From positions 3,872,001 through 3,936,000 of the forward strand of contig CM000152.2 of assembly GCA_000004695.1 (NCBI GenBank): a DNA stretch of 64,000 bases, given 5' to 3'. Positions 3,955 through 62,449 of this stretch are shown here, in pieces. A model generated the notes under the pieces. It made no database searches. It was not told where the DNA came from and saw only the letters and a program-made list of their open reading frames with translations. Position 1 is the first letter of the stretch. Each line of letters starts with the position of its first letter. Origin of the DNA: Dictyostelium discoideum. Lineage: Eukaryota. A program made the position numbers and the translations under genes.

Positions 3955-4025
3955 GCGTATGTGGTCTAGTGGTATGATGCATCCCTGCCACGGATGCGAA
4001 CTGGGTTCGATTCCCAGCATACGCA
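3955..4025 (+). tRNA. tRNA-Gly (anticodon GCC)
   Basis: A 71-nt cloverleaf: acceptor GCGTATG/CATACGC; anticodon stem CATCC/GGATG with loop CTGCCAC (U33-GCC-A37); T-arm CTGGG-TTCGATT-CCCAG. It resembles eukaryotic tRNA-Gly-GCC. Confidence 0.85.
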
Positions 4026-4678: not shown

Positions 4679-4749
4679 GCGTATGTGGTCTAGTGGTATG
4701 ATGCATCCCTGCCACGGATGCGAACTGGGTTCGATTCCCAGCATACGCA
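4679..4749 (+). tRNA. tRNA-Gly (anticodon GCC), second copy
   Basis: Identical 71-nt sequence to the copy at 3955-4025, lying 724 bp downstream. The 5' flank (TTTTCATAWAAGA) and the 3' flank element are also conserved. Confidence 0.85.
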
Positions 4750-4787: not shown

Positions 4788-5238
4788 AATATTATTGCAA
4801 ATTTTTTTTTTTGAAATGAATTGGCTATGTATCTCAATCCTGTGGCATTTTTGCTTTACTAGACCTCGGTATTTTAATATGAGGGCAAAAAAATGGATTG
4901 AAATTGGGCAATTTCCATTTAAGCAAACCTTTTTCAAAAAAAAAAAAAAAAAAAAAAAGAAAATATAATAATCCATTCCTAAAACAGGATTTCTAACTAA
5001 TAAAATTTTATAAATATGAAAAAACAGAAAAAAAAAAAAAAGAAAAGGTAAAAACTAATTAAAAAAAGTTCCAAAAAAAATTATTTTCCATAAAGAAAGA
5101 CAACATATTTTTAAATGGTTAAACCTAATAATTATTTTTATAAAATAAAACCATATAAAAAACATTACAAAAACCAAAACTAAAATTAAACCTCTTCAAA
5201 TAATTTTTTTTTTTTTTTTTTAAAATAATTATTTTTAT

Positions 5239-5309
<71 letters not shown>

Positions 5310-5404
5310 TTTTTTAAATTACTAATAGATTCAATAGGAATCTAGTTTAAAAAAAGTCATTAAGTTGGGAGTTTTTTTTTTAATTAATGAAAATTATAAT
5401 TCAA

Positions 5405-9151: not shown

Positions 9152-13032
<3,881 letters not shown>

Positions 13033-17341: not shown

Positions 17342-17413
17342 TCCTCATTGGTGTAGTCGGTAACACTCTAGTCTTTCACACTGGTACCTCGGGTTCGATT
17401 CCCGAATGGGGAG
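17342..17413 (+). tRNA. tRNA-Glu (anticodon UUC)
   Basis: 72 nt: acceptor TCCTCAT/ATGGGGA; D-arm GTGT-AGTCGGTA-ACAC; anticodon stem CTAGT/ACTGG with loop CTTTCAC; T-arm CTCGG-GTTCGATT-CCCGA; discriminator G. Confidence 0.85.
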
Positions 17414-17442
17414 CTTTTAAAGGAAACATTTTTCATGTCGCA

Positions 17443-17709: not shown

Positions 17710-18076
17710 TTAAATACCACAACATGAACCATTTCCTCCACCCATACTTCCATGACCATGACCATGGCCACGATTACCAGATCCACGATTACTACCACAA
17801 GCACCGCTTGATCTAGAACCTCCAGTTAAATCTAATCCTAGACCTAAACCTAATCCAAGAATACTTCCACTTCCTCCACCACAACCGCCACCACATGCAA
17901 TTGAATTAGAACCCATACTTGTCCCACTACCAAACGAGGCAATACTGGATTTTGAACTTGTCATTGGACTTGAAATTGATGAGATTGATGCTTTTATTTA
18001 ATTATAAATTAATTAGTTTTAATTTTTTTTTTTTTAAAAAATAAAATATCATTAAATCCTTACAAAAAAGTGTCAT
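17710..18076 (-). CDS. hssA/2C/7E-family small Gly/Ser/Cys-rich protein, copy 1 (exon 1 at 18076-18064, exon 2 at 17990-17710); variant tail with HG repeats
   Basis: Exon 1 is ATGACACTTTTTT|GTAAGG. The AAAAG acceptor joins in phase 1 to ORF 17710..17964. The product is [43 protein letters not shown]...(GL)n...[19 protein letters not shown]. Confidence 0.7.
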
Positions 18077-18822
18077 TTTATTTTTTCTGATTAAGTGAAT
18101 AACTAAATTTTTTAAATTTTTTATTTATACTTTTTTTTAAACCTTAAATAATAATTTACTTTTTATCAATAAATAATAATTTGTAATTTATCCAAAAAAG
18201 TATAATGTCAAAAAGCTTAACACAATTTTTATAATTAATATTCTTACTTTTGTGTTTTTATTAGATGAAAATATACTTTTTAACAGTTTATACATTTATT
18301 TGAAATAAATAAAAATAATATTATTTTTAATATATTAATTTTTTATAATAAAAACGATAGCGATTATCATTAACAATTTTATAACCCCACTCCACAATTA
18401 TTAAAAAATAATTTTAAAAGTGGTGTTTAAAATAAAAAAAAAATCACTAATAACAATACCGCCACCTGCCATTAAAAAAATAAAATTTTCTATATTACAT
18501 TTCTTGTAAAATTTATCACACATGTGGGAAGTAATGAAAATATAAATTTCAAAAAATAAAAAAAATCAATTAACAATACAATGAAATATTAAAATAATTT
18601 GTTTAAAATAAAAATCTTTTTTTTTAATAAATCATTTTAAAAAAGAGGGAAATTTAATTTTTTAAAAAAAAGTATTATGATAATAATAAAAAACAAATTT
18701 TTTTAAAAATTAAAAAAGTTCTAATTTATTTAGTTTTTTTAATTTAATTGGAAATTCGCCAATTTTAAATTAAAGTAGTATTACATTTATTGTAATGTTG
18801 AGTATATATATTATAATAATTT

Positions 18823-19195
18823 TTAAATACCACAACAACAACCTCCACAGCATGGGCTTTTTCCTCCACCCATACCTCCATTACCATTACCACGGTTTCC
18901 ACCATTACCACCACAAGCACCTCTTGATCTAGAACCTCCAGTTAAATCTAAACCCAATCCTAAACCTAATCCTAAACCAAGAATGCCTCCACTTCCACCA
19001 CAACCACCACATGCAATTGAATTTGAGCCCATACTTGTTCCACTACCAAATGATGAAATACTGGATTTTGAACTTGTCATTGGATTTGAGATTGATGAAA
19101 TTGATGCTATTAATTTTTTTAATTTAATAAGTATTCATATTTAATTTTAAATATTCCTTTATTATAATTTAAAAATACTTACAAAAGAGGGTCAT
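18823..19195 (-). CDS. hssA/2C/7E-family protein, copy 2 (A-type; exon 1 at 19195-19183, exon 2 at 19106-18823)
   Basis: Exon 1 is ATGACCCTCTTTT|GTAAGT, with a 76-nt intron ending TTAATAG. The product is [27 protein letters not shown]...CCGGCCCGI. Confidence 0.7.
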
Positions 19196-19711
19196 TTTAT
19201 TTTTTTATTTATTTTATTAAATTTTAGTTTATTTAATTATTTATTGAATTAATAATTTATTGATGAAATAAATAATAAAATTTTTTATTTATTTATACAT
19301 TTTTTTTTGAAATAATTTATTAATTAAAAATATTTTGTAATTTAACCTCAAGTCTACATAGTCAAAAAGTTACACACTAATTTCTAATAAATCAATTATG
19401 TTAGATTAATTCTTTTTACAAATTATACTTAAATAGAAAAAAGTTTAAAAAATGAAATTTCTAAATGGAATGTTTAAAACTTCATATAAAAACGAATTTG
19501 TTTATCACCAAACACACATATATTTATTAAAAAATTGAAATATAGTGTTTTCAATTCAAAAAAATCATCATATGATCTTTAACAATACCCCCATTTTTTA
19601 AACCTAAAAATAATTATCACCAACTTACAATTATCTTAATATTTTTTTTATATTAAAAATTTAAAGACGATGATATTATTTTAATGAAAACACTCTAATG
19701 ATTGATACCAC

Positions 19712-19742
<31 letters not shown>

Positions 19743-20079
19743 AAAACTTTAATTTTTAAATAAAATTTCAATTATAAAATAAAAACCAAATTATAGTTGT
19801 TTTAAATTTTTTTTTTTTTTATAAAAATGAACATGAGTAATTTTTACTATCGAAAATTCATATCCTATTCCCCTAAATTGATCTCCATTTTTAAACATCA
19901 AAACAATATACAAAATTTTCAAATTAAGACAATAAGAAAAAAAAAAAAAATAATTTGAAAAAATAGTTTTTTATTTATTTGTTTTTTTTTATAATTTGGT
20001 AATCCACCAATTTTATTTTAAATAAAATTGTTTTATATTTATAGTAATTTGGTAATATATTATAGTTTTTTTAAATATT

Positions 20080-20473
20080 TTAAATACCACAACATGGACC
20101 TCCACAACATGAACCATTTCCTCCACCCATACCTCCATTACCATTACCATTACCACGATTACCACCACAAGAACCTCTAGATCTAGAACCACCAGTTAAA
20201 TCTAAACCTAGTCCTAGACCTAAACCTAAACCTGAACCAAGAATACCACCACTTCCTCCACAACCACCACCACATGCAATTGAATTTGAACTCATACTTG
20301 TTCCACTACCGAATGATGCAATACTTGATTTTGATCCAGACATTGATGTTGACATTGATGAAATTGATGCTAATAATAACATAATTAAATTATAAAAAAT
20401 TAGTATTTTTTTTATTTTTATAAAATTTTTAAAACAAAAACTAAATAAGTTAATCCTTACAAAAGAGTGTCAT
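20080..20473 (-). CDS. hssA/2C/7E-family protein, copy 3 (B-type; exon 1 at 20473-20461, exon 2 at 20369-20080)
   Basis: Exon 1 is ATGACACTCTTTT|GTAAGG, with a 91-nt intron ending TTATTAG. The ORF-track ATG at 20382 lies inside the intron. The product is [27 protein letters not shown]...[10 protein letters not shown]. Confidence 0.7.
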
Positions 20474-21287
20474 TTTTTGATTTATTTATTAATTAAAATT
20501 TAATTTTTTTTATATTTGATTTGTTGATATTTGATGATTTAATTAATAAAAAAAAAAAACTTAATTTATAATTTTTTTTTTTTATAGGATAATTAAAATA
20601 AAATCATATTTTTTAATTTGTTTTCTTTAAATTATAATAATTTGTAATATAACCAATTTTTTTACAAATGTATAACTTCAAAAAATTAACCACAAAATTA
20701 CAATAAAACAAATTCTTTGATTTATACTTTTTTTTTTTATTTATTTAAGGTGTATTTAAAATTTTATATACATTTTTTAACAGTTTATATTAAAAAGGAT
20801 AAAACGAAATTTCTAGTTAATAATAACAAATTTGTATTTTTTTATTTAACCCCCACAACCCACAAAATTTAATTAATAAATATAATAATTTATGATGTTG
20901 TTAATTAGAAGAAAAAAAAAAAAAAAAACAACCACTAAATAATTTTTACCAAATTACAATTGTAGTAAAATTTAACACTAGTGCGGGAAGTAATGAAGTA
21001 AATTCAAAAAAATAAAAAAAGCGATTAATTAACAATACAATGAAATTTAACAATAATAAACAAACTGATAAAACCTTATTAAAATTTTATTTTTTAATAA
21101 ATCATTTTAAAAAGAGTTAAATTTTTAAAAAAAAGTATTATGATAATAATAAAAAAACAAAATTTTTAATAATAAAAAAGATTTTTTTTATTTATTTTTT
21201 TTAATTTGAAATTCGCCAGTTTTATAAATAAAGTAGTATTACATTTATTGTAATGTTGAGTATATAATTATAATTTTTTTAAATTTT

Positions 21288-21652
21288 TTAAATACCACAA
21301 CAACCTCCACAACATGGACCATTTCCTCCACCCATACCTCCATTACCATTACCACTGTTACCACCATTACCACAAGCACCTCTTGATCTAGAACCTCCAG
21401 TTAAATCTAAACCCAATCCTAAACCTAAACCTAAACCAAGAATACCTCCACTTCCACCACAACCACCACCACATGCAATTGAATTAGAACCCATACTTGT
21501 TCCACTACCAAATGATGATATACTGGATTTTGAACTTGTCATTGGATTTGAGATTGATGAAATTGATGCTAATAATTTTATAATTTAATTAGTATTCATA
21601 ATTTAAATTTAAAATTTCTTTTTAGAAAAAAATCCTTACAAAAGAGTGTCAT
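21288..21652 (-). CDS. hssA/2C/7E-family protein, copy 4 (A-type; exon 1 at 21652-21640, exon 2 at 21568-21288)
   Basis: Same 13-nt exon 1, GTAAGG donor and TTATTAG acceptor as the other copies; ORF 21288..21542. Confidence 0.7.
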
Positions 21653-22193
21653 TTTATTTTATTTTATTTTATATTTTAGTTTTTTATTTTTTGTTTATTG
21701 AATTAGTTAATTTGATTTAAATAAAAAAAAAAGTTTATAATTTATTTATACATTTTTTTTTAAAAAAATAATTTTAATTGAATAATCAATTTTTATTAAT
21801 TAAAAATATTTTGTAATTTAACCTCAAGTCAACAAAGTTATACAGATATCCACAAATTTCTAATAAATAAATTCTGTTAGATTAATTCTTTTTACAAATT
21901 ATACATAAATAGAAATTTCTAAATGAAATGTATAAAACTTCCTATAAAAACGAATTTGTTTATCACCCCAACCCACAAATATTTGTTGAAAAATTGAAAT
22001 ATAGTGGTGGCAATTCAAAAAAAGACATCATATGATCTTTAACAATACCCCCATTTTTTAAACCTAAAAATATTAATTTGCCAACTTACAATTATTATAA
22101 TATATTTTTTTATTAAAAATAGAAGTAAATAAAAAATTTAAAGAAGATATTATTTTAATGAAAAAAATTTAATGATTAATATCAATCATTTAC

Positions 22194-22231
<38 letters not shown>

Positions 22232-22493
22232 AAATTTGGAAGTAAAATAAAAAATGTTATGGATGTTCTTTTTTAAATAATGTATCGATTTTTATTTTGA
22301 GATCATTCACGAGATTATAAAAAAATCTTTTTTAAAAATATCAATAATCATATTTTAGATATTTTTGTATAGCAATTTTCATCATTTTTTATTTATTTGT
22401 TTTTTATAATTCGGTAATTCACCAATTTTATATTAAATAAAATAGTATTACATTTATAGTAATTTGAATATATATTTTTTTTTTTTAAATATT

Positions 22494-22883
22494 TTAAATA
22501 CCACAACATGGACCTCCACAACATGAACCATTTCCTCCACCCATACCTCCATTACCATTACCACGGTTACCACCATTACCACAAGCACCTCTTGATCTAG
22601 AACCACCAGTTAAATCTAAACCTAATCCTAAACCTAAACCTGAACCAAGAATACCACCACTTCCTCCACAACCACCACCACATGCAATAGAATTGGAGCC
22701 CATACTTGTTCCACTACCAAATGATGCAATACTTGATTTTGATCCAGACATTGAGGTTGACATAGATGAGATTGATGCTAATAATTAAATAATTAATTAA
22801 AATTATAAAATTAATATTTTATTTTATTTATAAATTTTTTTAACCAAAAATAAAATAATTTAATCCTTACAAAAGAGTGTCAT
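22494..22883 (-). CDS. hssA/2C/7E-family protein, copy 5 (B-type; exon 1 at 22883-22871, exon 2 at 22777-22494)
   Basis: Exon 1 is ATGACACTCTTTT|GTAAGG; ORF 22494..22763 extended upstream to the acceptor ATTATTAG. Confidence 0.7.
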
Positions 22884-23239
22884 TTTATTTTTTTTACTTT
22901 AAAATTTGATTTATTTGATGATTTAATTAATGATAGTAAAAAAAAAAAACTTTAAATTTATACTATTTTTTATAGGATAATTAAAATTAAATCATTTTTA
23001 TATTTTTTTTCTTCAAATTATAATTTGTAATTTAACCAATTTTTACAAATGTCAAAAAGTTTACCACAAAATTACAATAAAGCAAATTCTTTGATTTTTA
23101 CTTTTTATTTTTTTTATTTTTGAGGGTAAATACATTTTGGACAGTTTATATTAAAAAGGATATAATGAAATTTCTAATAATAACAAATTCGTATTTATTT
23201 AATTAACCCTCACAATCCACAAATTTTTTAAATATTTAG

Positions 23240-23281
<42 letters not shown>

Positions 23282-23919
23282 TAGAAAAAATAACAATACC
23301 ACCATTAAAAAAATTATTTGTTACCAAATTACAATTCCAGTAAAATTTAACTCAAGTGTGGGATGTTATGGCAATATTAATTAACAATACAATGAAATTT
23401 AACAATAATAAAATCTTAAACTGATATATCTCCTAAAATTAATTTATTAATTTAAAATCTTTTTTTATTTAATCAATCATTTTAAAAAAAGTTAAATTTA
23501 ATTTATAAAAAAAAGAATTATGATAATTATAAAAAACAGAATTTTAAATAAAAAAAAATTTTGATTAAATTTATTTAGTTTTTTAATATAATTGGAGCAT
23601 ATTTAGCACCAATGGCAACATTATAGCAGCTTGAGAAGGTGTATCGCTAGTGGTCTACAATAATGACCAGCATTGTGAGCAGGTGGATGGCATAAAAGCA
23701 CGAGTGTACCCAGAATAACTAACAGAATCAATGGTAGCACAAACCTAACCAATAAATTCTGAAAAAAAAAGAAAAAAAAAAGAAAAAAAAAAAATTAATT
23801 ACTATAGATTTTAATTATTTATTATTTTAAAATAACTTACCTATAATGATTTGGTACACATTTTTGTTGTTTTATATTTTGTTTTCTTTTTTAGTTGGTC
23901 ACATTCGATGTTTGAGGAG

Positions 23920-23952
<33 letters not shown>

Positions 23953-25026
23953 AAATAATTTTAAAATTGAAAAAAAAAAAAAAGGTGGGAAAAAAATGAA
24001 TTATTTTTTTTTTGGTTTTAGAATAGATAAACAGAGCACTCAAAAATATACAAAATGATATAAAATCTAAAAAAATGAATGTAACAATAATCGTATTATA
24101 GTAATTGTAAATTCTATTTTTTCCATTACATATTTAAAATAATATAAAAAAAAATAAATGGAATAAATCTTGATTTCTATAACCGATTTTATTTTTTTTT
24201 TTTTTTTTTTTGTATTCCATATTATTATTTTCTTGGGTACTTATTCCAAAAAGAAAATGATTTTGTTGGTGGGAAATATATTATTTATTATTCTTGTTAT
24301 TTTTGGAAAGAATAATAATATGGAATCATGAAAAAAAATTAATTAAAAAAAAAAAAAAAAAAATTCACACAAAAAACACAACTAATAAATCATCAATTAA
24401 TATACTTTAATATTGAAATGCCATGTTATTTTTTATAAAAAAATACAAAATTATTTTTCATTTCCACACCATCTCATTTTTTTTCTATATAAATGAGCCA
24501 AGATTGGATCATGTGATAAAAAAAAAATAAAAACAAAGAAAAAAATAAAAAAAAAATAAAAAAAATAAAAAATTAAAAAAAAAAAAAAAAAATGTAATAA
24601 TTAATACATTTCTTTATATATCTACTACTAAATACATAGTATTAATTATTTTTAAATTATATAAAATAAAAAATTAAAAAGCAAATAAACAAAACTTATT
24701 TTATTCCTTTAACATAAAAAACATTTAAAAAACTAAGAATTTATTTTTATTTTTCAATTTTATATAATTAATAGTATTTCCAATTGTTTCTCCCCAAGTT
24801 TAAAAACCTTTATTCGGTTACTCTTTATTCTACCTGGCTATTACTAATTCTTCTACTTTATCAAAACATGCTGAATCATTTGATGGTATCCAAAACTTTG
24901 CTATTGGACGACCTAATGTACTTTCAAACTCTCATATTTTTGTTCTATAACAATGGAAACATAGAAAAATTTTATGTAGGTTCCATCAGAAATTATATTA
25001 ATTTAATTTCTGTATTATTTATTTAG

Positions 25027-25087
<61 letters not shown>

Positions 25088-26058
25088 TAATGTAAATTTT
25101 ATTTAATTTTAATTTCTATTTTTTTATAATTTTTTTAGTAATTGTTTATTTTAATAGTAATATTAAAATTTGATGAATAAAAAAAAAAGACACATAATGT
25201 TTTACTCTTTAGAAAGGATGAATTTTTATTTTTTTTAATTTTTTATTTTTTATAAATTCACAATGAGACCCAGTATTAAATATAAAAATATGTTTTATTT
25301 TATTCTAACTTTAGATAAAAAAACAATGATGTTCCTATTTTAAGAAACAATGTTTTTATTATTTAATTTTTTTTTTTTTTTTTTATTTAGTGTTGTTATA
25401 TAAACATTTTTTTTATTATTTTATTTTAAAAAAAAAAAGCTTAACTGAAAATAGTTTTTCTAAAAATAGAATTTTTTGATCTGGCCAAAAATGAAAAATA
25501 ATTATATCATTACAATAAAATGGGAAAATAATGAGAAAACAATGGAGATTTGTTAAAATTAATAATAAAATTGTTTTTTTTTTTTTTTTTTTTTTTTTTA
25601 AGGTAATTCAAGTGTGGGAAGTTTTATATGGTTAAATTTACAGATAATGCAATACCACACAATTTTTTTTATTTTTTTATTTGGGTGTGTGATAAATAAA
25701 TAAAAAAATAAAAATAAAAAAAAAACAAATGGTGGTGATTGATTGTGTGCTGTTTTCTTAAAAAATAAATAAATAAAAAAAAAAATAAAAAAAAAATAAA
25801 AATAAAAAATATATTTTTTGAAATTACATATTGGTACAATGATATAAATAATTTTTTTTTTTCATTATCAATTTTATTTTTTTGTTCACTCAAAAACATC
25901 TCTATTTTATTATATAAAAGCTACACATTGTAAATCCAAAATTTCATTACCTTTCAAGTAAATATTATTTTTTATTTTAGTTTTAAAAATATATTTTATT
26001 AACCTTTTTTTATCTTTTTTTTCTTTTCTCTTTTTTTTTTTTTTTTTTTTTATAAAGA

Positions 26059-28113
26059 ATGGAAAACCCATTCAATTCCAATACTTATAATAATAATTAT
26101 AATAATACTAATTATAATAATAATAATAATTATTATTATAATAATAATAATAATTATAGTAATAATTATTATAATAATAATTATAATAATAATAATTTGA
26201 ATAATAATTATACCAGTTGTAGTAATCATCTCAACCTAACTCCTGAAGAATCTATGATTGATCAACCAAAGGAAAAAGAACAACCTATGCCTTTCTCTGC
26301 ACAAGACAGAACTTTGGCAGTTACTACACCGTCCAATCTAGCAATAGAATCTCAAGTTACCGATCTGTTGAGAGAGGATGAGGAACCATCTGCTGATGCA
26401 TCGCCAGCTACTACCTTTTCCATACAATTAATCGCCAAAGGAGGGCATGTTATTTACCTTAACCATCCAAATGCTCAAGTAGCTACTCTCAAGGTTCAAC
26501 TACCTGATACCGCACCATCCACTTTAGAATTACCATTACAAATAACTCCAGCAATAGACGTAAAGCAACTTGCAATATCGACCCATGATTACCAAAAAAA
26601 TCGGGTGAAGGTATGCGTACCTCGATTAGATCCTAAGGGTAAAGGATATGTACGTATTGAAGCATATGGTTTAAAAGGAGGATCAGGCGGTATAGAACTA
26701 GATACAGAGAAATTGATTACAGATATCGTATCAGGGTTCCATTTAGTAGGCATGCAGCCTTCTTCGGAAATGATCAATAGTTGGCGTCCTTTTTTAAGAG
26801 ACTTCTCTACTACACTCTCCAATATGACTCTGGACTTAAAGGATACCCCTTCTCCGATGTCAATTAATTCTTATGATCCAGGTAACTATCGCAGTACCTT
26901 TGAGCGAATAGCGAGTCATGCTACTAATAGAAGAATTACCCTCACACGATATGGGGCAGCCTACTTGCATATCGTGAGCCAAATAAGAACAAAGATCAAA
27001 CAACAGCAAAGCCTTCCCATTGACCCAGTTGAGTATCCTTCCCATAGCTATACGGTAAGCTTACAACCCAACTTATTGCATATGCTACCCTTGGTGGCCT
27101 CGCTGAATCATCTCTATGCTACGCCCATAGGAGGAGAATTTACCTTTGATGTAGGTAGTTTAATGCAGATAGCCCAGGTCGCTGTATGCTTTCATCCTGC
27201 TTTTTTAAATTTTGAAAATTCTAAAAGAATTACTTCTACTGGCATCAACCTAGATGATTTACTCACTGCTGCTTTACAAGAAACCACTTTGCAAGAGACT
27301 GCAAGAAAGCAAATGGATCAACAAGCACAAGAAAAGATAAAAAAAACAGTAGGTGAGGTAAGTGATTCGCTAGAAAACATAGAACTAGTCATTGAAGATG
27401 CGAAAGAACAATGGCAATCCTTGCATCCTCCCACAGATAACTACCCAGCATCTATGCAAGAAATCATCAAGGATTTGAAAGACATGCATACTTTACTAAC
27501 TAAAAAACTCACCATTTTAGATGATTTAGCCGGTGCAGATGAGAAAATTCGGGCTAAACGCAAAGAGCTGGTGGTAAAATCCACCAGGATGCAAGATGAA
27601 ATCGATGTCCTACTGCCTAAAATGCAGCAGGAACTGGAAAAGGTGAAGAGGGACGCAGTAGCACAAGAGTCTACCTTATTGGTTAGCCCCACAGGTAAAG
27701 GGATCCGTAATGACCGTGGAGGACAAGGTCATTACGGTGCATCGAGAGGTGGTCGCAAACATATGGGCATAGATTTTAGTTCAATAGTAGGACAGGATAT
27801 TGTAGCGCCTATATCTGGGAAAGTAGTCAATTTTAAAGGAGCTAGAACAAAGTATCCTATGTTACAACTATATCCATCAAAAAAGTTCACAGAATTTGAT
27901 TATCTACAAATGTTATATGTTCATCCTCCAGTTGGAATCAATATGGGAGCTAGCTATCAAGTATCTGTTGGAGATACTATTGGTATAGCGGCAAATTTAC
28001 AAGAATTAGGATACTCGGTAGAAGTGACACCACATATTCATTTAGAACTAAAAAAGAATGTACCTGGTAAAGATCCTATAAGTATTGACCCCACTAAATT
28101 TTTCTTCAACTAG
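26059..28113 (+). CDS. Intron-less 684-aa protein: a poly-N/Y leader, then a GC-shifted body with a coiled-coil region and a C-terminal M23 (LytM/lysostaphin-like) metallopeptidase domain; candidate horizontally acquired gene
   Basis: M23 signatures RKHMGIDFS (HxGxD) and TPHIHLE (HxH) flank the GKVVNFKGAR...VGDTIGI core. From about 26215 onward GC rises to roughly 40% against under 25% locally, and codons rare in Dictyostelium (CGG, GGG, CTG, GCG, ACC) appear. There are no introns. Internal ATGs at 26254 (MIDQPKE) and 26287 (MPFSAQ) could be the true start. Confidence 0.6.
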   Translation: MENPFNSNTYNNNYNNTNYNNNNNYYYNNNNNYSNNYYNNNYNNNNLNNNYTSCSNHLNLTPEESMIDQPKEKEQPMPFSAQDRTLAVTTPSNLAIESQVTDLLREDEEPSADASPATTFSIQLIAKGGHVIYLNHPNAQVATLKVQLPDTAPSTLELPLQITPAIDVKQLAISTHDYQKNRVKVCVPRLDPKGKGYVRIEAYGLKGGSGGIELDTEKLITDIVSGFHLVGMQPSSEMINSWRPFLRDFSTTLSNMTLDLKDTPSPMSINSYDPGNYRSTFERIASHATNRRITLTRYGAAYLHIVSQIRTKIKQQQSLPIDPVEYPSHSYTVSLQPNLLHMLPLVASLNHLYATPIGGEFTFDVGSLMQIAQVAVCFHPAFLNFENSKRITSTGINLDDLLTAALQETTLQETARKQMDQQAQEKIKKTVGEVSDSLENIELVIEDAKEQWQSLHPPTDNYPASMQEIIKDLKDMHTLLTKKLTILDDLAGADEKIRAKRKELVVKSTRMQDEIDVLLPKMQQELEKVKRDAVAQESTLLVSPTGKGIRNDRGGQGHYGASRGGRKHMGIDFSSIVGQDIVAPISGKVVNFKGARTKYPMLQLYPSKKFTEFDYLQMLYVHPPVGINMGASYQVSVGDTIGIAANLQELGYSVEVTPHIHLELKKNVPGKDPISIDPTKFFFN

Positions 28114-28381
28114 TAAACCTATGCCTCTGTTTTTCAATTAGTGATTTTTACTGTAGGAAATTCATATCTTAATCACTTTTACAATTTTTAGAACTTCAAA
28201 AAATAGACAAATTTTTTCAAATTAAGATAAAAAAAATAAAAAAAAATTAATTTAAAACAATAATTTTCTATTTATTTGTTTTTTTTTTTATAATTCGGTA
28301 ATTCACCAATTTTATATTAAATAAAATAGTATTACATTTATAGTAATTTGAATATATATTTTAATAATTTTTTAAAATATT

Positions 28382-28776
28382 TTAAATACCACAACATGGA
28401 CCTCCACAACATGAACCATTTCCTCCACCCATACCTCCATTACCATTGCCACGGTTACCACCATTACCACCACAAGCACCTCTAGATCTAGAACCACCAG
28501 TTAAATCTAAACCTAATCCTAAACCTAAACCTAAACCTGAACCAAGAATACCGCCACTTCCACCACAACCACCACCACATGCAATTGAATTTGAACCCAT
28601 ACCTGTTCCACTACCAAATGATGAAATACTGGATTTTGATCCAGACATTGAGGTTGACATTGATGAGATTGATGCTAATAATAACATATTAATTTATAAA
28701 AAATTAGTTTTTTATTTTATTTATAAATTATTTCAACTAAAAATAAAATAATTTTATCCTTACAAAAGAGTGTCAT
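28382..28776 (-). CDS. hssA/2C/7E-family protein, copy 6 (B-type; exon 1 at 28776-28764, exon 2 at 28674-28382)
   Basis: Exon 1 is ATGACACTCTTTT|GTAAGG. ORF 28382..28687 begins inside the intron. The plus-strand Pro-rich ORF 28446..28751 is its antisense artefact. Confidence 0.7.
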
Positions 28777-29596
28777 TTTATTTTTGATTTATTTTATTTA
28801 AATTAAAATTTGATTTATTTAATATTTGATGATTTAATAAAAATAAAAAAAAAAAAAAAAAACTTATAATTTATACCTTTTTTTTTTTTATAGGATAATT
28901 AAAATTAAATCATATTTTTTTTTTTTTTTTTCTTTAAATTATAATAATTTGTAATATAACCAATTTTATACAAATGTATAATGTCAAAAAAGTTAACCAC
29001 AAATTACAAATTCTTTGAATTATACTTTTTTTTTTTGTGTGTTTATATACATTTTTGACAGTTTATATTAAAAAGGATAAAATGAACTTTCTAGTTAATA
29101 ATAACAAATTCGTATTTAATTAATCCACACAACCCACAATTTAAGGTGCCGTTAAAAAAAAAAAAAAAAAAAATAAAATAAATACAATAGAAAAATAACA
29201 ATACCACCAACCAACCTTTAAAAAATTATTTTTTACCATATTACAATTCTTGTAAAATTAACACTAGTGTGGGATGTAATGGTAATATTCAAAAAATAAA
29301 ATCAATTAACAATACAATGAATTAAAACAATAATAAAACCTTAAACTGATAACCTTAACTAGTTTATTAAATATAAATTTTTTTTTTTTAATCAATCATT
29401 TTAAATAGAGTAAAATTAAATTTGAAAAAAAGTATTATTATAATAATAAAAAACGAAATTTTAAAACATTTAAAAAAATTCTGATTTAATTTATTTAGTT
29501 TTTTAATTTAATTGGAAATTCGCCAATTTTTAAATATAATAGTATTACATTTGTTGTAATTTTGAAAATATATTTTTAATAATTTATAAAAATATT

Positions 29597-29927
29597 TTAA
29601 ATACCACAACAACAACCTCCACAACATGGGCCATTTCCTCCACCCATACCTCCATTACCATTACCACGGTTTCCACCATTACCACCACATGCACCTCTTG
29701 ATCTAGAACCACCAGTTAAATCTAAACCTAATCCTAAACCTAATCCTAAACCAAGAATACCACCACTTCCACCACAACCACCTCCACATGCAACTGTATT
29801 TGAACCCATACTTGTTCCACTACCAAATGATGATATACTGGATTTTGAACTTGTCATTGGATTTGAAATTGATGAAATTGATGCTATTAATTTTATAATT
29901 TAATTAGTATTCATAATTTATTTTATA

Positions 29928-29963
<36 letters not shown>

Positions 29964-29980
29964 TTACAAAAGAGTGTCAT
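29597..29980 (-). CDS. hssA/2C/7E-family protein, copy 7 (A-type; exon 1 at 29980-29968, exon 2 at 29883-29597)
   Basis: Same exon 1, intron and exon 2 architecture as the other copies; ORF 29597..29857. Confidence 0.7.
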
Positions 29981-30908
29981 TTTATTTTATTTTATTTAAG
30001 TTTAGTTTATTTTTTTATTTTTTTATTAAATTAATAATATATTTATGGAATTAATAATAAAGTTTTTAATTTATTTATACATTTTTTTTTGAAATAATTA
30101 TTTAAATTGAATAATCACTTTTTATTAATTAAAAATAGTTTGTAATTTAACCTCAAGTCTACAAAGCCAAAAAGTTATCCACGAATTTCTAATAAATCAA
30201 TTCTGTAAGATTAAATCTTTTTACAAATTCTACATAAGAGAAAAAAGTTTAAACAATATAAAAAAATAAATTGAAATTTCTAAATGGAATGTATAAAACT
30301 TCATATAAAAACGAATTTGTTTATCACCCCAACCCACAAATATTTATTGAAAAATTGAAAATAGTGGTTGCAATTCAAAAAAAAAAAATCTTCATATGAT
30401 CTTTAACAATAACCCCATTTTTTAAACCTAAAAATAATTATCACCAACTTACATTTTTTTTTTTTTTATATTAAAAATAGACTTATATATAATTTAAAGA
30501 AGATAATAAAATTTTAATGAAAAAATTATAATGATTGGTATTATAAAAAAAAAACTATATCTTTTATTTTAAACTAAAATTTTAATGATAAAATCATAAA
30601 CCAAATTATGTTTTAAAATTATTCAATTAATAATTGTTTTTTTTTATAAAATTGAACATGATTGATTTTTTCTATAGAAGATTCGAATCTTTGTCCCCTT
30701 ATCAAATCTTAACTCTAAAAACATCAAAACAATATATCAATAGTTTTAAATTAAGATAATAGAAAATAATAAAATAAAATAATTTAAAACAATAATTTTT
30801 TATTTGTTTTTTTTTTTATAGTTCGGTAATTCATCAATTTTATATTAAATAAAATAGTATTACATTTATAGTAATGTTGAATAAATATTTGTAAATTTTT
30901 TTAATATT

Positions 30909-31326
30909 TTAAATACCACAACATGGGCCTCCACAACATGAACCATTTCCTCCACCCATACCTCCATTACCATTACCATTACCACGATTACCACCACAAG
31001 CACCTCTTGATCTAGAACCACCAGTTAAATCTAAACCTAATCCTAGACCTAAACCTAAACCTGAGCCAAGAATACCACCACTTCCACCACAACCACCACA
31101 TGCAATTGAATTTGAACCCATACTTGTTCCACTACCGAATGATGAAATACTGGATTTTGATCCAGACATTGAGGTTGACATTGATGAGATTGATGCTAAA
31201 AAATAATTTAAATTATAAAATTAGTATTTTATTTTATTATATAATATTTATATAATTATAAAATATTATGAAATATATAATTTCAACCATAAATAAAATA
31301 TTTTAATCCTTACAAAAGAGTGTCAT
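30909..31326 (-). CDS. hssA/2C/7E-family protein, copy 8 (B-type; exon 1 at 31326-31314, exon 2 at 31195-30909)
   Basis: Same architecture as the other copies; ORF 30909..31181. Confidence 0.7.
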
Positions 31327-32016
31327 TTTATTTTTTATTTTTTTTAATTTTTGATTTATTTAATATTTGATGATTTAGTTGATTAAAAAAAAAAAAAAAC
31401 TTATAATTTATACTTTTTTTATTTTTAGGATAATTAAAACTAAATCATATTTTTTATTTTTTTTCTTTAAATTATAATAATTTGTAATATAACCAAATTT
31501 TTTACAAATGTATAACGTCAAAAAATTAACCACAAAATTACAATAAAACAAATTCTTTGATTTATTCTTTTTTTTTTTATTTGTTTGTATTATATTTTTG
31601 ACGGTTTATATTAAAAATGAAATTTCCAGTTAATAATAACAAATTCGTATTTATTTAATTAACCCCCACAACCCACAAATTTATATTAATAAAAAAAAAA
31701 AAATTTATGGTGTTAATTAAAAAATAAAAAAAAATAAAAAATAAAAAAAATAGTAATAATAACAATACCACCTTTTTTTTTTTTTTACCAATTTACAATT
31801 TAATTTCGATTTTATTAATTTTATTATCAATTGTATTTAAAAAAAATTGTAATATCAAATTTAACAATAAACAATCAAATATATATCATTTTCTATTTAA
31901 ATATGATAATGTTATTAAATTTTCTTTTTTTTTTTTTTTTTTAGAAAATTAAAATTACAATAAATACAAATTTAGATTAATAAATATTAATATATAAATT
32001 AATAAATTATTAAATC

Positions 32017-54680: not shown

Positions 54681-55709
54681 TTAATTTAATTTTATAACAA
54701 TTTTACCAAATGAACCTCTTGATAAATGTTGAAATGCTTTAATTGAATCATCAAAATCATAAATTGTATCAATTACTGGTTTAAAGATGAAATTTGTTGA
54801 TAATTGATTAATCATTTCTTGGAAAGAATCTTTTGGTGAAACTCCAATACCATGTAGGTTAATTCTTTTAAAGAGAGCATCAAAAAGGTTGATTTTAGCA
54901 TTTGATTCTTTTAAAAATCCAATCATATAGATATGACCATGTGTATGACTACAACGTATTGATCTATTTATATAATCACCACCAACTACATCAAGTACAT
55001 GATTTACACCTTGATCATTTGTTAATTTCATAACTTCTTTCTCCCATTCATTATGGGTTTTATAATTTATAACATGAGTGGCACCCATTTTTAATAATCT
55101 TTCTTTTTTTTCTTCATTACTTGTTAAAAGTATAGTTTTTGCACCAATTGAATGTGATATTTGAAGAGCGAATAATGAGACACCGCCAGTGCCTTGAATT
55201 AAAACAGTTTGATTTGATTTTAATTTTGATTCAATTCCACCGACATTCATTAACGAATACCACGCTGTACATGCTGCAATGGGTAATGTTGAGCATTCTT
55301 CATCTGTGTAATGTTTTGGTGGTATTAAACATGAGTTTTCATCAAGAATAATGTATTTTGCTAAACCGCCATTTAACGGACCACCATAACTGAATTGTTC
55401 TTCATTACTTTTCGCTTCACCTTCCATCCAGTGAGATAAGAAATGATTTACAACTCTATCACCAACTTTAAATTTCTTTACATTTTTTCCAACTTTTTCA
55501 ATTATGCCACAAGTATCAGATACTGGTATTAAACCTTTTTCAAATTTAATACCATAGGTTCCATCCATTATTGCTTTATCTCTATAGTTTAATGAAACTG
55601 CTGATACTTTAACCAATACTTGATCATCATTAATATGTGGAACTGAAATTTCATCCATTTTCATACCATAGGTACCATCAAAACTATGAATTCTCCATGC
55701 CTTCATCAT
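54681..55709 (-). CDS. Zinc-type alcohol dehydrogenase / quinone oxidoreductase (MDR superfamily), single exon, 342 aa
   Basis: GroES-like N-terminal domain and Rossmann-fold motif (LIQGTGGVSLFALQI). The ORF is uninterrupted. Confidence 0.75.
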   Translation of the reverse strand: MMKAWRIHSFDGTYGMKMDEISVPHINDDQVLVKVSAVSLNYRDKAIMDGTYGIKFEKGLIPVSDTCGIIEKVGKNVKKFKVGDRVVNHFLSHWMEGEAKSNEEQFSYGGPLNGGLAKYIILDENSCLIPPKHYTDEECSTLPIAACTAWYSLMNVGGIESKLKSNQTVLIQGTGGVSLFALQISHSIGAKTILLTSNEEKKERLLKMGATHVINYKTHNEWEKEVMKLTNDQGVNHVLDVVGGDYINRSIRCSHTHGHIYMIGFLKESNAKINLFDALFKRINLHGIGVSPKDSFQEMINQLSTNFIFKPVIDTIYDFDDSIKAFQHLSRGSFGKIVIKLN

Positions 55710-56565: not shown

Positions 56566-56902
56566 ATGACTTTGTTTGGTAATCATTAATTTTATTATAA
56601 TTATAAAATTAATATAAAAAATAATTAATTCTTTTTTTTTTTTATTTTTTATTTTTTTTTTAGCTTCAATCTCTTTAATTTCTAATCCATTAAAAGGATC
56701 AAACTCAAGAATCTCATCATCAAATGGAAGTGGTATTTTAATGGGATCAAATTCAATAACATGTGGAGGTTGTGGTGGAACAACTACTACAATAAAATCA
56801 TCTGGTTCATTTACAATTGATTCTAGTATTAATGTTTATGTGGATTCTAAAAATGTTTATTCACGTACTTATCATGATTCATTTAATGGCTGTTCTAGTT
56901 AA
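56566..56902 (+). CDS. Divergent hssA/2C/7E-like small protein (exon 1 at 56566-56578, exon 2 at 56664-56902); it lacks the (GL)n core
   Basis: Exon 1 is ATGACTTTGTTTG|GTAATC. The acceptor (T)nAG joins in phase. The product is [54 protein letters not shown]...NGCSS*. It was missed by the ORF track because it is under 60 aa from its internal Met. Confidence 0.5.
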
Positions 56903-57798
56903 TCGTGTGATTTAATCATAAAAAGTAAATCTGATAAATCACCAAATATTAATATTTATATATATCAGTAAATTTGTAATATCAATCAATTTCCTTATTT
57001 TTTTAAAATAATTAAAAAATAAAAAAATAATAAATTCAATAATTTCTTTTTTTTTTTAAAAACAATATTATTTTTCATTCTTTTTTTAATTTAATGATTT
57101 ATTCTTAAATTAAAGATTAAAAAATATAAATAAAATTAGATTTGAATAATATTAAATATGATCATAATTGTGGATATACATACAAAAATGTATTTTTTAT
57201 TTTTTATTTTTTATTTTTAAAAAGACAAAATATGTTTTTTTTTAAATTAAATTTAATAATGTAAACCTTAGTTTGTGTTTTTTTACAACAATTTATTTGA
57301 ATTAAACAGTCACTAGAAAAAAGTAGTTTATATTTGGTTAAAAAACAATTTTAAAAGGGGTTTATATTATAATGAATAAAGGTTTAAATTTTTTTTTTTT
57401 TTCTGGTTTTTTTTTTTTTTTAAAAATCAATAACCACATGTTCAAGATGGATTAAATAATTTAAAACAAAAATGGGTTTGTGGTTTGTGAAAAAAAAAAA
57501 AACAAAAATTTGTTTGGATAAACTTTTAATCACGATTTTTAATATTTATTATATATAATCAGTAATTTCATTTTTTTTTTTACCTGTCAAAAATGTATTG
57601 AGATCTTATAGAAAATGAGTGTTTTTAGATAATTAAATCTCTGTACTATTTGGTCTAAAATAATTATTGTTTTTATTTGAAAAAAAAAAAAAAGAATGAT
57701 TTATTTTTAAAATTTTTTTTTAGTTTAAAAAAAAAAGTATAAAATAAAATTTAATTTTATACATTTAAAAATATATTTTAAAATTTAACTTAATAAAA

Positions 57799-58159
57799 AT
57801 GACTCTTTTTTGTAAGAATTTATAAACTAAAAAAAATATTAAAATTAAAACTAACCATATAGTATTATTAATTAATAGCATCAATTTCATCAATTTCAAG
57901 CTCAATTTCAAGCTCAAAATCAAGTATTGCATCATTTGGTAATGGAACAAGTATGGGTTCAAATTCAATTGCATGTGGTGGTGGTTGTGGAAGTGGAAAT
58001 GGATTTGGTGGTATTTTTATTGGTGCAAATATAGATTTAACAGGTGGCGCCAGTACAAGTAGTGGGGGCAGAGGTGGAAGACCAGGTCGTGGACATGGTG
58101 GGCCACATGGTCATGGTCGTGGTGGTTCTGGTTCTGGAAGCTCATGTGGTTGTAATTAG
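57799..58159 (+). CDS. Divergent hssA/2C/7E-family protein (exon 1 at 57799-57811, exon 2 at 57879-58159) with a Gly/His/Pro-rich tail
   Basis: Exon 1 is ATGACTCTTTTTT|GTAAGA. The acceptor TTAATAG joins in frame to ORF 57953..58159. The product is [27 protein letters not shown]...[18 protein letters not shown]. Confidence 0.6.
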
Positions 58160-58441
58160 GTTTTAAAAAAAACTATATTTCATTCATCCTATTACTATTA
58201 TTGTAATAATACTATATCCAATAAATAAAATTATATATTTTTTTAAATCATTTAAATCAAAAACACTCTTATTTATTTAAAATTTATTATTTAAATATAA
58301 GGATATTTTGACAAGGGAATTTTTTTTTTTTATATTAAAATTAATTTTAGTTTTAAATTTTCTTGGGAAATTAAATTACTTATATTAAATATTTTTAAAA
58401 AAACTATAAATGTAAAATGTAAAATGGTAATAGTTTTTTAT

Positions 58442-58482
<41 letters not shown>

Positions 58483-58955
58483 GTATTGTTAAAAATAATA
58501 TCATGTTTTTTTAATTAATAACCACCAAATCTATTAATTTCAATTTTTTATTAATATTTGTGGATTGGGGTATTGGTGTGTTTGAGTGTGTGGTTAAAGA
58601 TAAACCAATTAGTTTTTATATTTTTATATATATAACTATTATGGGTATCATTAACTGGAAATTTCGTATTTTTAATATTTTGTAAACTGCTAAAAAAGTT
58701 TATTCATCTAATATGAACTCAAACTTAAAAATAAATATTATTTGAATTTGGTAGTTAATTTTTACTTTTTTACAATACTGGTTAAATTACAAGTTAATAT
58801 AAATGAAAAAGAGTGATTTATTTTTTATATTACTCAAAAATAAAAAGTATAAATTAAAATTTTTTTTTTTTTTTTCATTAATCAATTATTATATTTTTAA
58901 TAAAAAAAAATTAAAATAAATTAAAATAAATTAATATAAATTATATTAAAATAAA

Positions 58956-59315
58956 ATGACACTCTTTTGTAAGTATTTTTTTTTTATTATTTTTTAATTT
59001 AATAAATTAAAATAATTACTAATAATTTTTATAATTATAGCATCAATCTCATCAATTTCAAACCCAATGACAAGTTCAAAATCCAGTATTGCATCATTTG
59101 GTAGTGGAACAAGTATGAGTTCAAATTCAATTGCATGTGGTGGTGGTTGTGGAGGTGGAAGTGGTGGTATTCTTGGTTTAGGTTTAGGATTAGGATTAAA
59201 TTTATTTGGAGGTTCTGGATCAAGAGGTGCTTGTGGTGGTAATGGTAGATCTGGAAATCCTGCTCAAGGAGGAAATGGAGGTTCTTGTTGTGGAGGTCCA
59301 TGTTGTGGTATTTAA
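58956..59315 (+). CDS. hssA/2C/7E-family protein, plus-strand copy (exon 1 at 58956-58968, exon 2 at 59041-59315)
   Basis: Exon 1 is ATGACACTCTTTT|GTAAGT. The acceptor TAATTATAG joins in frame to ORF 59067..59315. Confidence 0.7.
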
Positions 59316-59429
59316 AATATCTTAAAAAATTTTAAAAAAAATATATATGTTCAAAAGTACTATAGATGTAATAGTACTTTATTAAAATAAAAATGGTTAT
59401 TTACCAGTTTATTCAAAACAAAAAAAAAT

Positions 59430-59462
<33 letters not shown>

Positions 59463-60247
59463 TTATTGTTTTTTATTTTTAATTTTTAAAATAAACTATT
59501 TCTACAATTGTTATTGTAATGGTCTCAATTTAAATTAATTTTATTAGTCTTATTTTTCATTGGTTTAATTGATATATGATTGACCTCATTGAAATACCCA
59601 CTTTTTTAATCCATTTTTGTGGTGATAATTAATTCATTATTAACCCCATTTTATAAAAAAAAAATCTAAACTTTTTTTAAAGTTTTTAAAATTATTATAG
59701 TTCATTTAATAATATCAATAATCAAAGAAATGCCTTCGGTTTTAATAAAAATAAAATAATAGTTATTTTTATTTTATTTTTATTAAAAAAACATAAAAGA
59801 AATTTGGGATGATATTAAAAGGGGGTATTGTTATAAATCTAAAGATGTTTTTTTATTATATTTCAAAAATAACACAAAATTATAATTTTTGTGGGCTGTG
59901 GGTAAAATATTTTAATTGATAAACAAATTCTTTTTATATTAATTGTATTACATTACCTTTTTTTTTTTTTTTTCTATTTTTATATTATTGGTAAAATGAA
60001 TAAAAAAGTATATTCATCTGATGAATATACTGAAACTTAAAATGTCATTTATTTGAAATTTTGGTAAACTTTTTGACATTGTAGTATTTTGGTTAAATTA
60101 CAAATTATTATTAAAAAAAGTGATTAAAAACAAAAATAAAAAATAAAAAAAAATAAAAAAAAAAAACAAGGATATAAATAAAAAACTTTTTAGCTTTTTA
60201 ATTAACAAATATTAATACTAAATTATAAAATAATTAAAAAATAAAAA

Positions 60248-60628
60248 ATGACACTTTTCTGTAAGGATTTTAATATTTTAAAACAAAAATCATAAAAAAA
60301 ACATTTTGTAAACTAATTTTTAAAAAAATAATGAAAACTAATAAATTAATTATTATTAATAGCATCAATCTCATCAATTTCAAACCCAATGACAAGTTCA
60401 AAATCTATAATAGCATCATTTGGTAGTGGAACTATTATGAGTTCAAATTCAATTGCATGTGGTAGTGGTTGTGGAGGTGGAAGAGGTGGTATTCTTGGTT
60501 TAGGTTTAGGATTAGGATTAAATTTATTTGGAGGTTCTAGAGGTGCTTGTGGTGGTAATGGTGGATCTGGAAATCCTGCTCAAGGAGGAAATGGTTCTTG
60601 TTGTGGAGGTCCATGTTGTGGTATTTAA
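60248..60628 (+). CDS. hssA/2C/7E-family protein, plus-strand copy (exon 1 at 60248-60260, exon 2 at 60363-60628)
   Basis: Exon 1 is ATGACACTTTTCT|GTAAGG. The acceptor TTATTAATAG joins in frame to ORF 60389..60628. Confidence 0.7.
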
Positions 60629-61474
60629 AATATTTAAAAATTATAAAATATATGCTCAAAATTACTATAAATGTAATACTTTATTTAATATAAAAATGGT
60701 GAATTACTAAAAATGTTTTAAATAAATTAATTTTTTTAATAATTTGTTTTTTTTTTTTTCTAAATCTTTTTTTTATATTAAATTAATTTTTATCCATATA
60801 TAAACAAATTAAACCAAATTGAACTCTTTTGTGATGAGTTATTAAAATTTAATTTTCAATGATGATTTAAAAAAAGTGATTTATTGTTTACATCAATTTA
60901 TGACCTTATTTTTTTAATTTGATTTATTTATATTTTTAATTACTATTTTATTCTGATAGTTTTAAAGATTATTTTCATTCCATATATATGTAAAATTAAT
61001 GATATAAAAAAAGAATTGTAAGTTGGTAAAAGTTATTTTTTTAACAGTTAGTGGTATTGTCATAAACGATCTTATTTTTTTTTTTCCCACAGTAAATTAT
61101 ATTTTTTTAATATATGTGGGTTGGGGGTATTATATTGCGATAATTGTTTTAATCTTACACTATAATTATTATTTTAATTTTATTATTATTTTTTTTAATT
61201 TAATAATTCTATTAATGAATAAACTGTTAAAAAAAGTATTATCATCTAATAAAAACACAAAACAAATAATATTAATTATTAAAATTTAATGTCAAACTTT
61301 ACATTATACTTTTTTGGTTAAATTACAAATTATTATTTATTGAAAATAGGTGATTTATTTTTTAAGGGTTTTTTTTTAAAAAAAAGCTATAAATAAAAAA
61401 AAAATAAAAAAAAAGAATTATTAATCATTAATCAGTAAAATATTAAATAATAAATTATAAAACTAAAAAATAAA

Positions 61475-61849
61475 ATGACACTTTTTTGTAAGGATTTATT
61501 TAATAATTTTAAGTTTATAAAAAAAAAAAAAAAAAGAAAACTAATTAATTTAAATTAAAAATTATAAGCATCAATCTCATCAATTTCAAATCCAATGACA
61601 AGTTCAAAATCCAGTATTGCATCATTTGGTAGTGGAACAAGTATGAGTTCAAATTCAAATGCCTGTGGCGGTGGTTGTGGAGGTGGAAATGGTGGTATTC
61701 TTGGTTTAGGTTTAGGTTTAGGATTAAATTTGTTTGGAGGTTCTAGATCAAGAGGTGCTTGTGGTGGTAATAATGGTGGATCTGGCAATCCTGGTAATGG
61801 TCCATTTTCAGGAGGCTCTTGTTGCGGAAGTCCATGTTGTGGTATTTAA
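61475..61849 (+). CDS. hssA/2C/7E-family protein, plus-strand copy (exon 1 at 61475-61487, exon 2 at 61569-61849)
   Basis: Exon 1 is ATGACACTTTTTT|GTAAGG. The acceptor ATTATAAG joins in frame to ORF 61595..61849. The minus-strand Pro-rich ORF 61555..61788 is its antisense artefact. Confidence 0.7.
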
Positions 61850-62449
61850 ATTATTAAAAAATTATAAAATATATGTTCAACATTACTATAAATGTAATAC
61901 TACTTTATTTAAAAATTGGCGAATTTCCAATTATATTAAAAAACAAAAATAAATAAAATCTTTTTATTTTTAAAAATTTTGTTTTAATTATCACAATACT
62001 GTTATTTTACAAAATGAAATAACTTTTTTGTTGGCATTGTTATAATGATTTTATTTTTTAAAACACCAAAAATTCTTTTTTTTATTTTATTATTGGGGTG
62101 GGGTGTGGGTTTTAGATTGTTAATGATAATCATTATCGTTTTTATTATTTAAAAATATTAAAATTAATTTTATAATTAATGAAAATTTTTTTTAATTTTC
62201 TAATAAATATATAAATTGTATAAAAAAGTATATTCATCTAATATAAAACCTGAAATGTAGAATATTAATTATTTTAATTTTTAGTTTAACTTTTTGACAT
62301 TATACTTTTTAGATATATTACAATAATTTTTATTTTAAAAAAGTGATTTATTTTTGCAATCCTTTAAAATAAGCTATAAATAAAATTTTTAATTTTAAAT
62401 ATTCTTCATCACTCATTAGTTAATTATTAAATTATAAATCAATAATAAA

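Follow-up and report, generated by a model that had tools for sequence, protein, structure and literature searches.

The 64,000-nt stretch of Dictyostelium discoideum chromosome 3 analysed here (assembly GCA_000004695.1, contig CM000152.2, positions 3,872,001 to 3,936,000 of the forward strand; hereafter the window) very probably carries 15 paralogues of the Dictyostelium-specific hssA/2C/7E family, 14 intact and one a pseudogene; they are two-exon genes, of which those in the minus-strand array multiplied by duplication of an A+B gene unit and were then held under purifying selection. The family also goes by the names HssA/B-like, sigN-related and Pfam PF05710. Eight copies lie on the minus strand (17710-31326) and seven on the plus strand (56566-63880); they are named below after the first coordinate of their span (Table 1).

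Fifteen members of the hssA/2C/7E family in two arrays

Scanning the window, whose composition is about 20% GC, with the pattern ATGACNCTNTTTNGTAAG and at most one mismatch gave 14 matches against 0.00 expected, all on the strand of the adjoining Gly-rich open reading frame (ORF). Eight were on the minus strand, with the ATG at the upper coordinate of each minus-strand copy in Table 1, and six on the plus strand. The fifteenth gene, copy 56566, was read directly, with ATGACTTTGTTTG as exon 1 and GTAATC as donor. A tblastn search and an nhmmer profile run over the window returned exactly these 15 loci and no extra fragments or relics. Frames are intact in 14 of the 15 copies, copy 62450 being frameshifted. 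The spliced products of five representatives matched PF05710 ('Coiled', HssA/B-related) with 50-76 bits for a cut-off of 21.4 bits (E 1e-13 to 1e-21), and the alignments ran from residue 1 of the product to position 1 of the profile. The spliced product of copy 56566 is identical to UniProt HssA/B-like protein 43 (HSL43, Q54UL6), and the curated AX4 HssA/B-like proteins 49, 50 and 52 share the N-terminal start of the window products. The family assignment made in the original prediction, which had been drawn from the letters of the window, is thus upheld. Three products of the window match AX4 chromosome 3 entries exactly (26059-28113, 54681-55709 and spliced 56566), and loci L001 and L002 of a second D. 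discoideum assembly, GCA_054883475.1, cover the same region at 99.6-99.8% identity.

Read along the map, the minus-strand copies are A'(17710), A(18823), B(20080), A(21288) and B(22494), followed by 4.6 kb of unique DNA and then by B(28382), A(29597) and B(30909), where A and B are two subtypes. Eight minus-strand copies alternating between A and B in a repeat of about 2.4 kb had been predicted: the count is right and the period was measured at 2.41-2.53 kb, but the alternation is broken twice and the array is not continuous, since the 4.6-kb segment splits it. A comparison of the window with itself, also proposed at that time, delimited by BLAST two-gene units of 2.4-2.6 kb with 81-86% identity (for example, 18429-20928 matches 29170-31741 and 19887-22177 matches 28184-30536). 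The seven plus-strand copies, foreseen in number, stand 0.98-1.29 kb apart without A/B alternation; one of them, 62450, is frameshifted, and the array runs beyond base 64000. The next copy, about 0.7-1.0 kb past the window (L002 781-1052), is exactly HssA/B-like protein 49 (sigN118). HSL50 and HSL52 also map to this chromosome, and the series of 2008 prediction IDs goes on with DDB0203954-57.

Copy 62450 has a frame-breaking indel and ends in FCGI instead of CCGI. As this frameshifted sequence is identical in the second assembly, the copy is probably a real pseudogene and not a sequencing error.

Probable unit duplication followed by purifying selection

We compared the copies within the window, that is, within D. 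discoideum alone. Within subtype A or B, coding identity was 95-97%, with a synonymous divergence (dS) of 0.11-0.17, a nonsynonymous divergence (dN) of 0.009-0.023 and a dN/dS of about 0.1, the upstream 400 nt were 84-89% identical (11-16% divergent) and the introns 69-87% identical. Between A and B, dS was 0.18-0.34 and the flanks were essentially unalignable (63-69% identity). Divergence at silent sites matches that of the flanks, with dN/dS at about 0.1, and purifying selection after a single burst of unit duplication is therefore enough to explain why the proteins are alike. These values suggest that one old burst of two-gene-unit duplication and subsequent purifying selection, rather than homogenisation, shaped the cluster. 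The minus array would have grown by tandem duplication of an A+B unit of about 2.45 kb, the duplicates all being about equally old to judge from their dS; since then, silent and flanking sites would have diverged and purifying selection would have held the proteins constant. Two points weigh against this history: each pairwise dS is drawn from 8-11 synonymous differences, and alignments of the AT-rich flanks are noisy, so that short gene-conversion tracts may be present. The comparison of dS with flank divergence is a modest addition to existing knowledge and not a discovery.

Conservation is also seen beyond the stop codons. A G/C-containing motif pair, ATTACTATAAATGTAATAC then TTGGNGAATTNCCAA, stands 40-90 nt past the stop codon and is common to both arrays and both subtypes, with 9 matches of ATTACTATAAATGTAATAC...TTGGNGAATTNCCAA against 0.58 expected. 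Its second member, TTGGNGAATTNCCAA, is partly palindromic. The pair persists though synonymous sites differ by about 0.3 between subtypes, and a related TGTAATATTAC follows a distant homologue in D. firmibasis (L003, about 6330). The pair may act in polyadenylation, in termination or as a regulatory element. A bolder and rather doubtful proposal is that it constitutes an undescribed family-specific cis-element that acts in RNA stability or localisation or else is bound by a dimeric factor, perhaps linked to the reported RNA-level activity of hssA. The transcripts, instead of or besides the proteins, might even be the active products, the 3' motifs serving their RNA role, as could be argued from this conserved element and from a report that frame-shifted hssA is as good as the in-frame gene at suppressing a culmination defect. 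We regard this as unlikely: a dN/dS of about 0.1 is a mark of selection on protein sequence, the frameshifted copy 62450 has a degraded tail as well, and a plain role in polyadenylation, termination or transcription-factor binding could account for the 3' element.

The original prediction had explained the likeness of the interior copies by ongoing concerted evolution, with gene conversion or unequal crossing-over keeping them alike and the edge copies escaping and decaying. The coding identity within subtypes agrees with this, as does the lower similarity at the left edge of the minus array and at the inner edge of the plus array. However, homogenisation would erase silent differences too, and therefore the dS of 0.11-0.17, equal to the flank divergence, counts against it, together with the dissimilar introns, the low dN/dS and the fact that A and B remain distinct although they are interleaved. 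The near-identity seen in ribosomal DNA (rDNA), which includes silent sites and spacers, was not found here. Decay at the edges fares no better, since the flanks of edge copy 17710 are shared by plus-array copies, copy 30909 at the right-hand edge is of ordinary B type, and the only clearly decayed copy, 62450, is interior to the plus array. We therefore hold concerted evolution to be very unlikely; the tree, whose construction had been advised, and the identity matrices do not support it.

The divergent edge copies are older sub-lineages and not decayed copies. Copies 57799 and 56566 have intact frames, as has 17710, and resemble separate subfamilies elsewhere, either through the HG-rich tail that HSL64 and a D. 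dimigraforme protein also have or through membership of an 'IDINIDINL...CGCN' group. The plus array and copy 17710 are older sister lineages. In the coding tree, copy 17710 groups with 62450 and 63487, and upstream it has 74-77% identity to the flanks of 61475 and 62450 but 62-66% to those of A and B copies. A common ancestral array, later split or copied in inverted orientation, is thereby suggested as the source of both arrays, and their opposite orientation may stem from an old inversion or inverted duplication.

A 13-nt first exon and its consequences for annotation

In every copy, exon 1 consists of 13 coding nucleotides (ATGACNYTNTTYK; ATGACACTTTTCT in copy 60248) that encode MTLF plus one base, and exon 2 provides the other 78-96 residues. 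Exon 2 begins at the first CATCAAT after the AG (CTTCAAT in copy 56566), and joining it to the 13 nt gives in 14 copies an open frame of 83-101 residues with the start MTLF(S/A)SIS(S/L)(I/M)S. Across the 15 copies, introns measure 67-118 nt with 5-15% GC, compared with 29-43% GC in exon 2. The donors are GTAAGG (n=10), GTAAGT (n=3), GTAAGA (n=1) and GTAATC (n=1), and the acceptors all end in AG. Thus, the predicted model of a 13-nt exon, an intron and exon 2 holds for all 15 copies, but its intron range of 70-100 nt was too narrow and its two donors, GTAAGG and GTAAGT, account for 13 copies and miss the GTAAGA and GTAATC ones.

Exon 1 varies only at positions 6, 7, 9 and 12, which are synonymous in the frame ATG-ACN-YTN-TTY, and at position 13, where T or G gives Ser or Ala after joining to exon 2. 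Since it varies only at synonymous positions and at this one Ser/Ala site, the micro-exon appears to be translated in the MTLF frame, for which the substitution pattern is direct evidence at the sequence level. The D. firmibasis homologue (L003 6001-6304) has ATGACACTCTTCT followed by a GTAAAT donor and a 73-nt intron; the micro-exon is therefore older than the split of these species.

The same structure is on record. Vicente et al. 2008 (PMC2257962) reported a 13-nt exon in 89 of 96 family genes, the sigN1 cDNA displays it, and Kin et al. 2018 (PMC6198379) gave a 13 bp first exon for the hssA/7E/2C family. In Additional file 1 of the 2008 study (PMC2257962), all 15 copies could be matched one to one by chromosome, protein length and intron length, the tabulated introns being one less than in our count, and the prediction IDs are consecutive in the map order of the window copies. 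The splice model and the family assignment are therefore correct, but they were already published and catalogued for these very genes. As a point against the model at the level of single genes, transcript support for the junction comes from the family (the sigN1 cDNA; Kin 2018, PMC6198379), and the junctions of the window copies are read from their sequence.

A two-exon structure with so short a first exon means that a prokaryote-style ORF list mis-starts every copy, as had been noticed. In no copy is the listed start early enough: it falls on Met14 in the A copies, on Met10 in two of the B copies and on Met30 in some copies of the plus strand. A start at an intronic ATG, predicted for B copies in general, is listed for only two of the four (20080 and 28382), the other two being those that start at Met10. 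Published gene models are uneven as well. The annotation of GCA_054883475.1 has exactly the spliced spans for 20080, 29597 and 30909, models 28382 as an unspliced 101-aa ORF from the intronic ATG (L001 12324-12629), and omits four minus-strand copies and every plus-strand copy; annotations of other strains fuse HSL43 and HSL44 into a single 175-aa model. In the 2008 table (PMC2257962), copy 20080 (sigN130) is a single 303-nt exon, that is, the ORF from the intronic ATG.

The unspliced models of 28382 and 20080 would fit a view in which splicing does not occur, translation starts at internal or intronic ATGs and the conserved ATGACNCTNTTT is only a 5' untranslated or promoter element, but this is hardly credible given the purely synonymous variation of the 13 nt in the MTLF frame, the MTLF start of the Pfam profile and of the curated UniProt relatives, the sigN1 cDNA, the GT...AG boundaries and sharp GC drop in 15/15 copies, and the A-type copies, in which no ATG retains the conserved SISSISNP segment. 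The main value of the two-exon model is as an annotation check, because prokaryote-style ORF calling and some recent eukaryotic annotations mis-model these genes, and the micro-exon rule should be useful for curating a family of roughly 100 members.

Properties of the products and relatives of the family

The products are 83-101 residues long, rich in Gly, Ser and Cys and low in sequence complexity. They fit the family pattern of fewer than 120 residues and a conserved MTLFSSISS...SKSS N-terminus, with invariant columns M1, T2, L3, F4, S6, I7, S8 ... N33 and C37. AlphaFold2, run on an exon 2 product with a 23-sequence alignment, returned no secondary structure, a mean predicted local distance difference test (pLDDT) score of 44 and a predicted template modelling (pTM) score of 0.10, and the product is accordingly described as a Gly/Ser/Cys-rich protein predicted to be disordered. 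The old database labels 'coiled-coil' and 'cysteine-knot' find no support in this low-confidence model, which does not disprove either fold. Cys occupies position -4 in 14 of the 15 copies (CCGI or CGCN; for example 17713-17724, 29600-29611 and 58148-58159), with more Cys before it, which superficially recalls a CaaX prenylation box with palmitoylation sites. Such a box makes a weak candidate and was rejected, as a2 is Gly or Cys, X is I or N, residues that prenyltransferases do not typically accept, and other family members end differently.

A full HMMER search with representatives gave 10 matches; apart from a spurious one to a Phytophthora protein of low complexity, all were in the D. discoideum species complex, and detectable relatives in these searches are confined to that complex. 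Word-indexed protein searches gave only 5-6 relatives, and none of the window's own products, owing to the low-complexity query, a result that we did not take as a lack of annotation. A search for contigs encoding HSL43, HSL49 and HSL64 found no match.

The nearest described systems are other branches of the family. Like the window genes, the sigN Group 1 and Group 2 clusters on D. discoideum chromosome 2 (PMC2257962) have two exons with a 13-nt ORF in exon 1 (intron 66-107 nt), occur as clustered, highly similar copies, thought in the sigN case to derive from duplication of a two-gene unit, and encode small Gly/Ser/Cys-rich products. Their induction in multicellular development would be shared as well. 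As differences, the published table gives the window genes no more than 26-34% identity to SigN1, and these genes encode longer products (83-101 aa vs 87-89 aa) and lie on chromosome 3, head-to-tail within each array. The founding members hssA (DDB_G0280999) and 2C (DDB_G0280847) are also on chromosome 3, in the same Pfam family and a nearby ID range, with probably similar developmental induction. hssA itself is absent from the window, where its published qPCR primers were unmatched even with 3 mismatches. The cup-cell-specific hssA-like clade (Kin et al. 2018, PMC6198379) belongs to the same family and has the same 13-bp first exon, but is expressed only at the very end of fruiting-body formation.

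Expression and possible function

About 85-100 nt upstream of the ATG, nearly all copies have a TATA box, (G/A)(G/C)TATAAAT(A/T)A, and after it an oligo-T run (for example at 18120-18135, 19290-19300 and 58870-58880), and a TGATTTA(T/A)TTTT motif 20-30 nt further upstream is kept though the flanks have otherwise diverged. Each copy forms its own small transcription unit. In published RNA-seq data, the hssA/2C/7E genes DDB_G0280927, DDB_G0280931, DDB_G0280933, DDB_G0280949, DDB_G0280951 and DDB_G0280953 are at 0 in vegetative cells, induced at 8 h and at their peak at 12-16 h; both the prespore and the prestalk fraction contain them, whereas mature cup, spore and stalk cells have almost none. 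The IDs DDB_G0280927, DDB_G0280931 and DDB_G0280933, with a peak at 16 h, adjoin that of DDB_G0280935, a gene of the window. The window genes would thus be silent in growing cells, switched on at about 8 h and at their peak at the slug stage. The family represents a lineage-restricted, highly expressed developmental gene set.

The products are probably small proteins, either secreted or of a matrix/adhesion type, with redundant action; the same was proposed for the sigN genes, for which antibodies disrupted mounds, staining was vesicular and a 13-gene deletion gave no phenotype (PMC2257962). Our best guess, held with low confidence, is that they are redundant, abundant small secreted or sheath-associated proteins. 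Several observations pull the other way: dictyBase IDs are placed on individual copies by ID adjacency only, the N-terminus of the window products has no classical signal peptide, Vicente et al. (PMC2257962) could not demonstrate surface or matrix localisation, and the suppressor activity reported to be kept by frame-shifted hssA raises a possible RNA-level function.

Table 1. Family genes, 3' motif sites and other mapped features of the window
Feature	Position	Strand	Product	Intron (nt)	Remarks
A' gene, sigN133	17710-18076	-	97 aa	73	GHGHGHG tail; exon 1 18076-18064; exon 2 ends 17710
A-subtype gene, sigN115	18823-19195	-	98 aa	76	tail CCGGCCCGI
B-subtype gene, sigN130	20080-20473	-	100 aa	91	unspliced ORF from intronic ATG
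A-subtype gene, sigN114	21288-21652	-	97 aa	71	
B-subtype gene, sigN128	22494-22883	-	98 aa	93	
B-subtype gene, sigN125	28382-28776	-	101 aa	89	unspliced ORF from intronic ATG
A-subtype gene, sigN123	29597-29980	-	99 aa	84	
B-subtype gene, sigN119	30909-31326	-	99 aa	118	
Divergent member, HSL43 (Q54UL6), sigN129	56566-56902	+	83 aa	85	without (GL)n core; donor GTAATC
Divergent member, sigN124	57799-58159	+	97 aa	67	HG-rich tail, end CGCN
Plus-array gene, sigN121	58956-59315	+	95 aa	72	
Plus-array gene, sigN120	60248-60628	+	92 aa	102	exon 1 ATGACACTTTTCT
Plus-array gene, sigN126	61475-61849	+	97 aa	81	
Frameshifted copy, sigN154	62450-62822	+	49 aa		indel after ...IACGG
Plus-array gene, sigN113	63487-63880	+	97 aa	100	MTLFA...
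3' motif sites (examples)	18748-18762, 19996-20010, 22411-22425, 28295-28309, 29512-29526	-			
3' motif sites (examples)	61916-61930, 62882-62896, 63929-63943	+			
Unique segment	23597-28183				4.6 kb; splits minus array; carries DDB_G0280935
DDB_G0280935, 'Peptidase M23 domain-containing protein'	26059-28113	+	684 aa		exact AX4 match; about 37% GC
Single-copy block	31800-56500				about 25 kb between arrays; ordinary genes
Zinc alcohol dehydrogenase	54681-55709		342 aa (ORF)		exact AX4 chromosome 3 match

The interrupting segment, the single-copy block and other features

The segment that splits the minus array carries DDB_G0280935, which is far more GC-rich than its surroundings and encodes a protein with an Asn-rich N-terminus and, at the C-terminus, a metallopeptidase domain of M23/LytM type in which the HxxxD (HMGID) and HxH (HIHLE) motifs are present. 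Its Pfam M23 score, 22.9 bits, is under the cut-off, and the matches in the Protein Data Bank (PDB) are an M23 peptidase and LECT2. Homology upstream of B copy 22494 breaks off at 23596, close to the expected 3' end of an A copy, which suggests that the M23 segment stands in place of an expected A copy. A tRNA-targeted retroelement was considered as the cause of the interruption and set aside, there being no tRNA within 23.6-28.2 kb.

Both arrays transcribe away from the single-copy block between them, as had been predicted, and the block holds ordinary single-copy genes: F-box/TBC RabGAP, PH-domain kinase, PNP-family, Hop2/TBPIP, ERGIC/ERV, protein kinase and Zn-alcohol dehydrogenase. The arrays show strong GC skews of opposite sign because their coding strand is rich in Gly (GGT) codons.

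Elsewhere in the window, a tRNA-Glu(UUC) gene lies at 17342-17414 (+), some 300 nt to the left of the minus array. Two tRNA-Gly(GCC) genes are found at 3955-4025 and 4679-4749 (+), with a third similar repeat at about 5202-5312 that ARAGORN did not call. Finally, an 899-aa ORF at 10333-13032 (+), with a GC content of 0.32 and an AT skew of +0.35, has a PX domain and a weak dynamin-N match.

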